A stretch of DNA of 64,000 bases from Octopus vulgaris (taxonomy: Eukaryota): NCBI GenBank assembly GCA_951406725.2, contig OX597816.1, forward strand, positions 143,654,001 to 143,718,000. The letters run 5' to 3'. A program made the translations under genes and the position numbers. Within the stretch, counting starts at the first letter, position 1. Each line of letters opens with the position of its first letter. This document shows, in pieces, positions 56,630 to 64,000 of this stretch. The notes below the pieces were generated by a model. It saw nothing but the letters and a program-made list of their open reading frames with translations. It had not been told where the DNA came from and made no database searches.

Positions 56630-57088
56630 AAAATGCAGAACCACCCACATGGCAAAAACTACTGGCCAATTGCATGCCAGAACTTAATGTATAACTTATA
56701 TACAGCATGTTTAAACTTCTTCACAGCAGAACGAGTTGCTGGGAAGAAAGCTGTCTGACGATGTGCCGAGCAATTGTTAATAAACAAAACTGTAATGTCA
56801 GTTATGCGGGAGGATAGAAGAAACCTAGTTTCAACTTGGTTAGATTGCAAGAAAGCCTTTGACTCTGTTCCCCACTCATGGATGTTAGAAGCCCGTCAAC
56901 TTGCTAAAGTTCCAGTGAGCATAGTCAAAGGCATTGTTGACCTGACTTCATTGTGGGCCATCATCTTGAAATTAAACACAAAGCGTGACTGTATTATCAC
57001 CGATAGAATGCAGTATCGCAGAGGCATATTCCAAGGGAACAGCCTCTCTGTGATGTTGGTTGTACTTTCTATAAACTGCTTGTCATTC
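56630..57088 (+). pseudogene. R4/NeSL-type RT fragment
   Basis: QLLINK, WLDCKKAFDSVPHSW, RRGIFQGNSLS. Confidence 0.85.
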
Positions 57089-57540
57089 ATGCCCGTGAGC
57101 AATTATGGAGTGAATTTTAGGGCTTATAAATCTAATATTCTCCTATCCTTCCTTAATACCGGTTCCCATATGCTGTTCATATCTGCACTCGGTTTGCTTA
57201 GGAGGTCGTTGTGTCCTAGAATATGTGCCGCTTCTTTTAGTTAAAATAATAGACAGAGAACACCACTGGAAAATACGAAAATTCACTCCATAATTGCCCA
57301 CGGGCATATGGTGTAGTGGTTAAGAGCGCAGGCTACTAACCCCAAGATCCCGAGTTCGACTCCAGGCAGTGACCTGAATAATAATTAATAACAACATCGA
57401 AAAATACATTAGGAATGAGAACCAAGACACCTGATGAAGGCTGGAGGGTATATCAGCCGAAACGTTGTGTTAACAACAAAGAAGATGAGGACAAATATCC
57501 ATCAATTGTAAATAATGTAATTAATGTACATAATTCCTCA
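57089..57540 (+). mobile_element. Composite element: 30-bp inverted repeat, tRNA-like Pol III head and hammerhead ribozyme
   Basis: IR at 57089-57118 / 57278-57307. A-box TGGTGTAGTGG and B-box GTTCGACTCC within 57302-57374. HHR at 57426-57471. Confidence 0.75.
57426..57471 (+). ncRNA. Minimal type I hammerhead ribozyme
   Basis: gacac-CTGATGA-a-ggctg(gagggtatat)cagcc-GAAAC-GTT-gtgtt. Stem III is the palindrome AACGTT. Confidence 0.8.
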
Positions 57541-59122: not shown

Positions 59123-59599
59123 GCATACATACACGCATATATATATACATTATATAACAAAATAGAATGAAAAAATCTACAAAAGGTTTGTATTATATGT
59201 TAAAAAATATATTAAAATCGTCATGTTAGGAAAATGTTATAAAAAGTTTTTTATAGTGATATTGTTTTTGAACCGGTTTCGCATTTTCTTTTCAAATTTC
59301 TCAAATTTCTTTACCCTTGTTGTGTCATCTATTCGCTACGGTGTGATGTAGAAGAGTTCGAAACAGGGGGAGGTAGTCAGGGGCTTTTTCGGTATGGGGA
59401 GATAATCAAAAATGTTGGGAATGATTAGGTTTTGTTAATTTAATATGATTTGATTTTTATAGAATGAAATATTAGAAATGATTAAGTTTTGGTTTATATT
59501 TTTAAATGAGGTAAGTTTCCTTATTTAAAAATGCTAGAAATGGTTAACTTTTGGCTTATATTTTTTAATGATATAGGTTTCCTTATTTAATCTAGCTTA

Positions 59600-60800
59600 T
59601 GTTGGTGTTTCAATAGCACATTGATAAAATGGAAAGATTACAAATTGTGGTAGCAGTTGTTTTGAGCATCTGTCAATGTGTTCACTAAAGGGTATCATTC
59701 TGTATTCTGGGAATGCAATCTGCTGTCGATGCAGAGTGCATCTGCGCCTGAGTGATAATCCCGTGAACCCTATGTAGTTTTGGAGGCAGCTCGAGCATAT
59801 TATGACATAAATCAGGTTTTCTGAGGCACAAGTAAAATTAGATTTGATTTTGAATTTTTGTCCCTCTTTAAAAGGGAATTCTGATCCTTCTAGACGGTTT
59901 GGGCATGTTGCGCAGTTTGGTCGACCACATTTTTCCCTTTTGCGTCCGTTATTTTAGAAAATAATTTTGCCCTTGTAAGGATCTTTTTTAGTGACTTCAG
60001 TTGTTCGTGGCTTTTAATGAACTTATGTGTGTGTAAATCCTTTAATTTGGGGTTCTTATGCAGCATTGGTAGATTTTGGGTGATGATGGTGAGAGCTACT
60101 TTGTTTCTGGGCTTGTATGTGGATATGTACGGCAGTATTTTCAGGGAAAGTGTGTTGCTGTGTTAAACTTTTCTTAAAGTTTTTTTATGTCGATTTGTGT
60201 TTCACGTCTTGATTCCAACCTCTATGAGTTGAACTGGGTAGTGTCTGTCAATGAGGGTGTTTTTGAGTACTTGCTGTCTAAAGTCTCTGGTACTTTCTGA
60301 CACTATGGTGCATATCTTTCTTGCAAGGTTGAAGCGGATGTTTGTTTTGGTGTGTCTTGGGTAGCATGAATTAAGTAGTAGATGTGGTTTTGTAAAATAT
60401 GTCCATTTCTGTTTTTAGGTTTATTTTTTAAAACTAATATATCCAAGAATGGGAGCTCCTTTTGGTTATATTCCAATTTGAATTGTATGTTTGGGTTGAC
60501 GCTGTTCAATAGTATTTTGAATTCCAGGAGTTTGTCTGTGTTTTCATTCCAGAGGATGAAACAGTCTTCCAAGAATATGCTCCAATTTTCTTTTATTTAT
60601 TGGGAAAGAGGGTTTCCAAAGGTAGATAAAGATTCCTGGTATATTATTATTTCCAGATAGCCCGTTGTTAGGTACGAAATGACCGGGGCCGTGCTAGTGC
60701 CCATGGGAATTCCGTATTTTCTCGATAAAAAGTGTTATCAAACATGAAATGGTTGTTTCGTAGGGTGAATTCAACCGATTCAATTATGAAATCTTTGCTG
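59600..60800 (-). pseudogene. Penelope-like element RT + GIY-YIG endonuclease, decayed
   Basis: GIPMGTSTAPVISYL, EDCFILW, NPNIQFKLE..LPFLDILV, NFTCASENLIYVIICSSCLQNYIGFTG, LRRRCTLHRQQI. Confidence 0.9.
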
Positions 60801-60879
60801 ATCCTTTTCGGTATTTCTTCCGGATATTGGTCCAGCTAGAACTGAATTGACTCTAGAACTGATATTGGTCCAGCTAGAA

Positions 60880-61299
<420 letters not shown>

Positions 61300-62225: not shown

Positions 62226-62230
62226 CAGAT

Positions 62231-62625
62231 ACAGGAATGGCTGTGTGGTAAGTAGCTTGCTTACCAACCACATGGTTCCGTGTTCAGTACCACTGCGTGG
62301 CACCTTCGGCAAGTGTCTTCTACTATAGCCTCGGGCCGACTAAAGCCTTGTGAGTGGATTTGGTGGACGGAAACTGAAAGAATCCCGTCGACATATGTAT
62401 ATGTGTATGTATATGTTTGTGTGTCTGTGTTTGTCCCCCCAATATCGCTTGACAACCGATGCTGGTGTGTTTACGTCCCCGTTACCTAGCGATTCGGCAA
62501 GAGAGGCCGATAGAATAAGTACTAGGCTTACAAAGAATAAGTCCTGGGTTCGATTTGCTCGACTAAAGGTGGTGCTCCAGCATGGCCGCAGTCAAATGAC
62601 TGACACAAATAAAAGAATAAAAGAA
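62231..62625 (+). mobile_element. tRNA-derived SINE with internal microsatellite and (AAAGAAT)-type tail
   Basis: GGCTGTGTGGTAAG..GTTCAGTACC head, cggcaagtgtcttctactatagcc core, ggtgctccagcatggccgcagtcaaatgactga tail. Confidence 0.9.
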
Positions 62626-63067
62626 AAAAAAAGAATATACATACATGTACATAAATATATACACACATATACACACACATACACATACATGTGTGCGTGT
62701 GTGTGTGCGTGTGTGTGTTTGTGGCGTGTGTAAATATATATGCCCTTGATGGGGCAAACAAATCATTCGAAATTAAAATATCAGTCTGTTGCAAAACTTT
62801 TTTTCCGTTCTTATTTTGAAATAACAGTTTCACAATACATTTATATATGTCTCACTTTTGTTAGTGGAGATATTGGTGGGATTACCGTTATTGTTTTTGA
62901 GGAGCCTAAGTCAGAATCAGAGGAGTAGATCTAATTCTGGTGAATAAAAACACACACACGTGTGTATGTGTGTGTGTGTGTGTGTGTGCATACACATACA
63001 AAAACAAAGGAACACATGCGTGCGCGCACATAGACAGATATTTATATAAGCTGATGTTGACTAGTAT

Positions 63068-63139
<72 letters not shown>

Positions 63140-63251
63140 TAAACGGCCATAATAGGCCATTCACCCACTAGAAATAACAGCCAAAAGCTTTAACCGCAAA
63201 ATAACATCAATTCCGTAAACCAGGAGAAAATTAAAAAACATTTACCCTGTA

Positions 63252-63358
63252 ATTTCTTAGACGATGCACCGTTTCATCTACCGTTTAATGGTAAACTAAC
63301 CTGATTAAATTAAATCAAGCCAATCTACCATAGGCCCTTAGATTCATCAGTAAGAAAT
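63252..63358 (-). ncRNA. Type I hammerhead ribozyme, intact core
   Basis: atttctta-CTGATGA-atcta...tagat-GAAAC-ggtgcatc-GTC-taagaaat. Stem I is a perfect 8 bp. Confidence 0.9.
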
Positions 63359-63740
63359 ATTAAGTCGGAACAGATATTTTTCACGAGGCATTCCTCTTGC
63401 TACCTCGGCAATATCTGACCTAAAATTTTCAAATCGTCGCACTCGCGCCAAATTTATCGGCAGCAAATAAATATAAGCCACCGATTCCATTACGGAATTA
63501 ACCAGAAAATTCATAATTAATCAATATAGGGTGGCAAAAAAATTTTGTAGAATTCTTTTGCCACCAGCGGCCTAGTGGGAAAAAATTAAATAGTCATAAA
63601 CCATTTTTAAGTTCAACATCACAATCAAGGAACGGCCATAATAGGCCATTCACCCACTAGAAATAACAGCCAAAAGCTTTAACTGCAAAATAACATCAAT
63701 TCCGTAAACCAGGAGAAAATTAAAAAACATTTACCCTGTA

Positions 63741-63847
63741 ATTTCTTAGACGATGCACCGTTTCATCTACCGTTTAATGGTAAACTAACCTGATTAAATT
63801 AAATCAAGCCAATCTACCATAGGCCCTTAGATTCATCAGTAAGAAAT
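63741..63847 (-). ncRNA. Type I hammerhead ribozyme, intact core (second copy)
   Basis: Same motif, 489 bp from the first copy. Confidence 0.9.
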
Positions 63848-63969
63848 AGCCAAGTCGGAACAGATATTTTTCACGAGGCATTCCTCTTGCTACCTCGGCA
63901 ATATCAGGTCAGATATTGCCGAGGTAGCAAGAGGAATGCCTCGTGAAAAATATCTGTTCCGACTTGGCT

Positions 63970-64000
63970 ATTTCTTACTGATGAATCTAAGGGCCTATGG
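63970..64000 (+). ncRNA. Third HHR copy (inverted), truncated by the window end
   Basis: atttctta-CTGATGA-atctaagggcc... Confidence 0.75.

Follow-up and report, generated by a model that had tools for sequence, protein, structure and literature searches.

The right-hand end of the window (the whole 64,000-nt stretch of Octopus vulgaris DNA analyzed here) carries a tandem repeat with hammerhead ribozymes, followed directly by an inverted copy of the same sequence. Which kind of element has this arrangement, and what reaction leaves it behind? The earlier note had proposed a young retrozyme or circular-RNA replicon, with a 489-nt monomer cut from a minus-strand transcript and mobilized in trans by a Penelope RT. 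We find that the locus belongs to a young, abundant, non-coding family, and that the element is very probably a retrozyme mobilized by a Penelope-like element (PLE). As for the reaction, we lean toward two priming events by a PLE RT-endonuclease dimer on the same RNA, a monomer and probably a circle.

Layout of the insertion at the window end

The 489-bp direct repeat reported from the first inspection of the sequence is there (63142-63359 versus 63631-63848), and the copies are near-identical, at 98.5% over 275 nt. They do not, however, make up two whole copies, since the left part amounts to 1.56 units, a single complete unit and a further 275 nt. The inverted copy from 63906 is likewise present (89 nt at 100% within the window), but it had gone unrecognized as the second, 888-nt arm of a stereotyped insertion. 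With the neighboring genome sequence included, the complete insertion measures ~1.65 kb and consists of two head-to-head arms flanked by (TA)n: a first (TA)n tract, a left arm of ~770 nt with its ribozyme strand running leftward, the junction, a right arm of 888 nt running rightward, and (TA)n again. The window edge truncates the element; the right arm extends 793 nt beyond it to the second (TA)n, terminating in a long ("B") end followed by (TA)n at G000:C3:143718793. This two-armed layout, missed in the earlier note, is the most informative feature of the locus. The features within the window are as follows.

63065..63137, no strand: left (TA)n tract, the target microsatellite (TRF period 2, 36.5 copies)
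63136..63905, minus: left arm, ribozyme-sense on minus, 1.56 units, with the short ("A") end as terminus (sequence comparison)
63136..63148, minus: A-type 3' end (unit position ~131), putative RT start site 1 (sequence compared with the usual end)
63252..63358, minus: outer type I hammerhead (stem I 63358-63351 with 63259-63252, core 63350-63344, cut 63260/63259)
63260..63748, minus: predicted 489-nt monomer, cut to cut, a putative circular RNA (sequence, fold z)
63281..63338, minus: 58-nt hairpin insert, stem II of the outer hammerhead
63513..63530, minus: internal copy of the long ("B") end site, unit position ~236, putative RT start site 2
63618..63630, minus: internal intact copy of the A end site
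63741..63847, minus: inner type I hammerhead (core 63839-63833, cut 63749/63748)
63894..63923, no strand: central 5'-to-5' arm junction, at 63905/63906, unit positions 334 and 328
63906..64000, plus: start of the right arm (888 nt, ribozyme-sense on plus; L031:1906-2793)

A third hammerhead starts at 63970 in the right arm, with its core at 63978-63984. The A end of this locus has a 7-nt internal deletion relative to the usual CCTTGATTGTGAT followed by (AT)n, and we scored it as unclassified. The absence of an ORF also holds: no stop-to-stop frame in the unit exceeds 57 aa, and the family has no protein-coding capacity and no LTR, its arms being plain tandem units. ARAGORN returned no tRNA.

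Other repeats lie close by in the window. A decayed PLE fragment at 59597-60835 (minus; GIY-YIG E = 0.05) belongs to an old, high-copy family and sits 2.3 kb from the element; it is separate from the retrozyme and has no significant sequence match to the unit. We also observe a Tc1-like DDE_3 fragment at 60888-61151 (E = 0.002), a non-LTR RT fragment at 56759-57244 (E = 2e-5), and, at ~62228-62600, a SINE-like repeat with a (AATAAAAG)-type tail that recurs in many of the fetched flanks.

Hammerhead ribozymes and the size of the family

The minus strand contains two complete type I hammerheads with cut sites 489 nt apart, as described in the first reading of the sequence. Each has an 8-bp stem I (ATTTCTTA/TAAGAAAT), CTGATGA, GAAA, a palindromic stem III and the GTC triplet, a layout that agrees with predicted cuts at 63749/63748 and 63260/63259. 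Stem II carries a 58-nt hairpin insert, and 68 nt separate CTGATGA from GAAA. This insert probably explains why the Rfam models returned no hammerhead, either at the gathering score or at E<=10, so that the proposed check against RF00163 came back empty although the motif is present. Searches with a fixed geometry, like those with Rfam, can miss hammerheads with a long stem II. Weak microRNA-type Rfam matches sit on microsatellites and on the palindrome and were dismissed.

Among copies collected by regular expression, the canonical core is kept in 252 of 257, with the CUGANGA, GAAA and NUH elements, three stems and open stem I of the type I class. The core varies at N7, where all four bases occur, and at N17, which is C or A; between this family and a sister retrozyme family, stems I and III differ by compensatory changes. 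The monomeric fold of a lone hammerhead is predicted to lie 3.3 kcal/mol above the MFE, a shifted fold being preferred, and two motifs are predicted to pair via the stem III palindrome (-80.3 versus -69.6 kcal/mol). Because the lone hammerhead is predicted to misfold, efficient self-cleavage likely needs the dimeric form; the predicted pairing agrees with the dimeric regulation described in the available text of PMC4209133 and PMC7229834. Conservation and folding support the putative self-cleavage of the transcript.

In the genome (2.80 Gb, 227 contigs), the exact ribozyme-junction motif occurs 1,830 times (912+918) compared to 0 for a reversed control, and the copy-number search that had been suggested thus reveals a dispersed family. 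Searching with the element itself gave 925 candidates, and the 40 of these that were scored contain 222 matches, mostly 97-99% identical. A second conserved motif, the block TTTGGCGCG...TTTGAA (63428-63452 in the window, minus), is kept in both retrozyme families and found exactly at 2,292 places in the genome. It lies ~60 nt upstream of a cluster of arm 5' ends at unit positions 378-388 and appears to resemble E2F/CDE and CHR cell-cycle promoter motifs. The units form arrays of up to 18. Tandem type I hammerhead units of a few hundred bp, dispersed in many copies, are the hallmark of non-LTR retrozymes. Contigs from sequencing runs labeled with three organisms cover the complete unit; they served for variants and as a lead to the sister family only, and cannot show RNA ends, strand or circles.

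We examined 81 loci in total, out of roughly 900. Set 1 comprises 40 similarity-ranked loci and is biased to full-length close copies. Set 2 comprises 40 more regions (41 insertions), position-ordered along contig C1 and taken from the first 100 junction-motif matches, with one intact junction required for inclusion.

Two ends and one haplotype per insertion

Across the 81 loci, arms end either ~+131 (A) or ~+236 (B) from the cut site, and (TA)>=4 is found within 30 nt after 135 of 141 arm 3' ends. Sixty loci are two-armed and 21 one-armed, and the arms are head-to-head in all 59 loci with both orientations. Where both ends could be classified (48 of the 60 two-arm loci), one arm always ends at A and the other at B: A+B 48/48, A+A 0, B+B 0, with 25 of these loci similarity-ranked and 23 position-ordered. 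The other 12, the window locus among them, have an unclassified end. From these one-short/one-long ends we infer two fixed RT starts, one per DNA end; the 12/60 unclassified ends and the 21/81 one-arm loci count against our preferred explanation. An inverted 5'-truncated arm, a tail at one end and a microsatellite target are what PLE-mobilized elements have. As an inverted arm, two 3' ends and a (TA)n target make up the PLE signature, PLE-like mobilization is supported, and the initial view of a young non-autonomous hammerhead retrozyme moved by PLE machinery is strengthened by features (the head-to-head arm, the two alternative 3' ends and the (TA)n target) found here.

The sister family, at 70-79% identity, has the same two ends in 8/8 two-arm loci, one end being ~10 nt short. 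It is older (L092-L111), with a 487-nt unit and often a CCGATGA core and weak stem II; its stem II hairpin insert is ~10 nt longer, and stem II pairs poorly in the same register. At one locus of this family (L102), an (AATAAAA)n filler separates the arms.

The pairing of different ends bears on two readings to which, taken together, we give almost no weight. The first is an RNA-to-RNA (viroid-like) replicon, a possibility raised in the earlier note and in keeping with a highly structured RNA (fold z = -7.2 for the 489-nt monomer). However, the opposite strand has no hammerhead core in either the retrozyme family or the sister family, and the family spreads as DNA insertions, which leaves the replicon reading unsupported. 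The second takes the inverted arm for an assembly fold-back artifact. Perfect inverted repeats can come from chimeric reads, but at dozens of loci the two arms differ in their fixed ends and in their flanks, an arrangement that recurs in the sister family and in four PLE families.

In a third reading, one arm would be made by TPRT and the other by fold-back (self-priming) copying, with endonucleolytic resolution then leaving the tail at one end; the available text of PMC3846280 describes a similar self-priming idea. Such copying would account for a haplotype shared by the two arms and for near-symmetric centers, since both 5' ends fall within 25 nt of each other on the unit in 11 of 48 loci (5.4 expected, p = 0.012), including the window center (334/328). 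Yet the 5' ends lie more than 25 nt apart in the other 37/48 centers, by up to 228 nt, and the simplest fold-back products, A+A or B+B, number 0/48. Either arm can be the longer one (A in 11/24 loci), and the G>A bias reported below has the same direction in both arm types, with first-strand errors rarely mirrored. We regard fold-back copying as improbable. In the double-priming explanation, near-symmetric 5' ends would fit a single break in a shared circle; 7 of those 11 loci have 5' ends that differ by whole units.

The arm centers themselves show short overlaps or fillers (-38 to +36 nt). The 5' ends, counted against a second natural copy (an apparent pile-up at position 390 is partly a reference artifact), form two post hoc clusters: 7/120 immediately upstream of the ribozyme (unit positions 378-388), and 9/120 at +1 to +13. 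The former may represent run-off from a linear transcript start and the latter run-off at the cleaved end. A negative correlation of arm lengths in set 1 reversed in the position-ordered set; we treated it as a selection effect and dropped it.

Whether both arms came from the same template can be read from their substitutions, which we counted after masking homopolymer columns and piece ends. In set 1, there are 0.37 substitutions per 100 nt within the same arm, 0.45 (same register) and 0.44 (other register) against the opposite arm, and 1.74 between loci. The corresponding values in set 2 are 0.46, 0.63 and 0.80, and 4.66. The arms disagree at 1 of 364 common-SNP comparisons; random locus pairs share a haplotype 7% of the time. 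Eighteen variants private to single loci, at 9 loci in total, are fixed in every unit of the two arms; nine of the 18 come from one divergent locus, L219. At the window locus, one variant is fixed in one arm only. Differences between units within a locus are shared across arms in 4 of 176 cases; ~40 would be expected if the donors were multimers as heterogeneous as these loci, and ~7, by our own arithmetic, if the strand-biased excess alone is birth-time variation. By these comparisons, differences between units would not have been inherited from a donor array, and both arms share a locus-specific haplotype.

Single-unit changes also have a direction. On the ribozyme strand, G>A outnumbers C>T (54 vs 17; 2.65 vs 1.31 per kb, p = 0.010), in both arm orientations and at both end types, as expected if each arm is first made as antisense cDNA. 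The excess suggests errors or deamination on the first cDNA strand. The cut-site junction is free of indels in 253/267 contexts, and the other 14 have no downstream anchor. Precise junctions of this kind would be expected from a ligated circle or from uncleaved RNA more than from end-to-end jumping.

Uncleaved RNA is the basis of the chief rival, in which PLE enzymes prime at two sites on a linear multimeric donor transcript, unequal exchange later homogenizes and resizes the arrays, and the ribozyme plays a secondary part. This would account no less well for the A+B rule and for the haplotype that the arms share. Long arrays do contain local duplications, the 5' ends clustering at 378-388 may mark a transcript start, and in vitro the enzyme mainly used unprocessed RNA, according to the portion of PMC11167929 available. 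Linear multimers fare less well with the haplotypes: the opposite arm differs by 0.45 vs 0.44 (set 1) and 0.63 vs 0.80 (set 2) in the same versus the other register, cross-arm sharing is 4 as opposed to about 7-40 expected, and private variants are fixed across all units at 9 loci. Conservation of the core in 252/257 copies also speaks against this rival. We consider this rival unlikely, though it deserves more weight than fold-back copying. A caveat applies to the register and whole-unit arguments, which are weakened because unit number and register can change by local duplication after insertion: 11 variants are each carried by several units within a single arm, which indicates later local duplication in long arrays (also L036 and L044+45). 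The L044+L045 locus (G000:C10:17474904-17483741) has one arm only, an array of 18 units in which two unit types are interspersed, possibly a sign of later local amplification toward a satellite.

Under our preferred explanation of double priming on one monomeric RNA, the cycle would run as follows. Transcripts of tandem arms would be cleaved by dimeric hammerhead pairs to give ~490-nt monomers, and a host ligase would then circularize these; the predicted misfolding of the lone hammerhead would keep the circle intact. A PLE enzyme acting in trans, likely as a dimer, would cut both (TA)n strands, and reverse transcription would begin at two fixed sites ~105 nt apart, one per DNA end. Each reaction would proceed for a variable length, often beyond one unit, to give tandem arms, and the two cDNA ends would be joined by microhomology or short filler.

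Co-resident Penelope-like elements and known systems

The flanks of the retrozyme also allowed us to trace, via fragments, four young PLE families with many intact ORFs (775, 776-847, 784 and 727 aa). The 775-aa ORF has RVT_1 and GIY-YIG domains, and the family with the 727-aa ORF is presumably Hydra-like. The named animal relatives of one co-resident Penelope ORF are bivalve molluscs. Three of the four families have a CX2-5CxxC linker, given for Neptune/Nematis in the available text of PMC8557442. In (TA)n, the A+B rule holds for these families in 16/16, 5/5, 8/8 and 10/10 pairs (39/39), all hand-picked as inverted neighbors with both ends visible; the first count comes from 19 fetched regions, 3 of them unclassifiable, the third from 11 regions and the fourth from 11 with inverted arms. 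In the two families tested, a shared haplotype again links the arms (0.048 vs 0.165 and 0.168 vs 1.256 per 100 nt); tails in the four families measure about 33, 33, 43 and 72 nt. This leads us to a broader and more tentative proposal, to which we would not quite commit: one PLE RT dimer would prime at two fixed positions of the same circular ribozyme RNA, with a polymerase entering from each side of one (TA)n break and both running around that circle; the resulting cDNAs would be joined 5'-to-5', and the same rule would explain the inverted arm and one-sided tail of PLEs generally.

The PLE families also bear on a last rival, in which an autonomous PLE has the unit as its pLTR and our loci are 5'-truncated ends of that PLE with locally amplified repeats. 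Retrozymes do derive from pLTRs in Xenopus, according to the portion available of 10.64898/2026.07.22.740005, the 81 loci are drawn from roughly 900, and the PLE families are a sample. In arrays of up to 18 units, however, each ribozyme has the same unit upstream, not an ORF. Comparison of the unit by blastn with five PLE families (the old neighbor in the window and the four young ones; a sixth, decayed family was left out) gave no significant match (best E about 0.06-0.07). With tblastn, the PLE ORFs matched separate elements of other families in the 80 fetched regions, none joined to the unit. At the loci tested, therefore, the unit is not the terminus of an autonomous Penelope, the case that the earlier note had named as its own undoing. 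We consider the pLTR reading very improbable and, as no Penelope ORF is joined at the examined loci, we class the element as a non-LTR retrozyme. That no autonomous element with a matching pLTR was found also counts against double priming by a PLE dimer.

Several of these PLEs carry hammerhead or hammerhead-like motifs of their own. A very young two-ORF Neptune-like PLE (L156:5361-9631, G000:C1) has a 4,271-nt unit, copies ~99.8% identical, many intact 775-aa ORFs and a minimal hammerhead with a CCGAAGA core; its ORF1 had no Pfam match. Three families, two young and one old (L272, L280, L085), have a hammerhead-like motif with a non-canonical TTGAAAA or TTGACAA core before GAAACCGG, and one of the three includes ~1.4 kb of microsatellite-rich sequence within the unit. 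The fourth young family (L313; 727-aa ORF, divergent clade) has a canonical CTGATGA hammerhead and a ~72-nt tail. At L057, L058, L215 and L239, a retrozyme and an active PLE, or two retrozymes, lie close by in or near the same (TA)n, which is consistent with shared target hot spots.

Much of this picture has precedents. Retrozymes and their likely dependence on PLEs, the inverted arm, the one-sided tail, the two sites of RT initiation and the idea of a circular template are all found in the available portions of published work (10.64898/2026.07.22.740005, PMC11167929, PMC8557442, PMC7229834, PMC3846280, PMC4209133, PMC8969392, PMC9977147). The origin of the inverted arm and one-sided tail of PLEs, and the role of retrozyme circles as transposition templates, are stated to be open in the text available from PMC8557442, PMC11167929 and PMC7229834. 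The main value of the octopus family is as a readout of the PLE integration mechanism. Because it has no ORF and is polymorphic enough to barcode insertions, its many young copies record the reaction, which would involve one template and two fixed starts, one per DNA end. It also supplies a minimal substrate of 490 nt, and the genome that carries it encodes at least four candidate enzymes that are intact.

Metazoan non-LTR retrozymes have been described in coral, mussel and axolotl (PMC7229834) and in vertebrates (10.64898/2026.07.22.740005), and animal retrozymes form circles (PMC7229834), again going by the portions available. Units in the animals tested there are 170-400 nt compared to ~490 nt here, and the octopus family differs in its 58-nt stem II insert, two-armed (TA)n insertions and two fixed ends; the words "inverted" and "microsatellite" are absent from the main text of PMC7229834. 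In the available part of 10.64898/2026.07.22.740005, 8/9 Xenopus retrozyme dimers showed no in vitro cleavage, which counts against our explanation.

EN+ PLEs, as far as the available text of PMC8557442 and PMC3846280 describes them, resemble the retrozyme in their head-to-head inverted arm, 3' extension at one end, (TA)n bias and hammerhead upstream of the 3' ends, but they have an ORF, and their tail is 30-40 nt rather than ~105 nt. These papers place the tail "often" or "optionally" at one end, whereas here there is one of each in 48/48 classifiable loci, with one haplotype.

Closest in mechanism is Poseidon from Anolis carolinensis, the only PLE system tested in vitro (PMC11167929, in the portion available). 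It shares with our proposal two internal RT starts downstream of the hammerhead that define the tail, an AT-rich target, the cutting and extension of both strands, and a predicted dimer. Hammerhead cleavage was dispensable there, which we count against our explanation; that study did not follow whole insertions, while here the pairing of sites and the monomeric template are deduced from genomic copies. The circle proposal in the available text of PMC4209133 is similar in that a ribozyme-cut, ligated RNA templates more-than-unit reverse transcription, with a palindromic stem III dimer; the role of the circle is tentative there, and the octopus copies provide an indirect genomic test of it. Our literature search found no cephalopod retrozyme, two-armed retrozyme, strict A+B count or haplotype test of arm origin, although supplements and repeat databases may hold the family. 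Relative to these systems, what appears to be new here is the two-armed retrozyme, the strict one-short/one-long count and the use of haplotypes to test where the arms came from.
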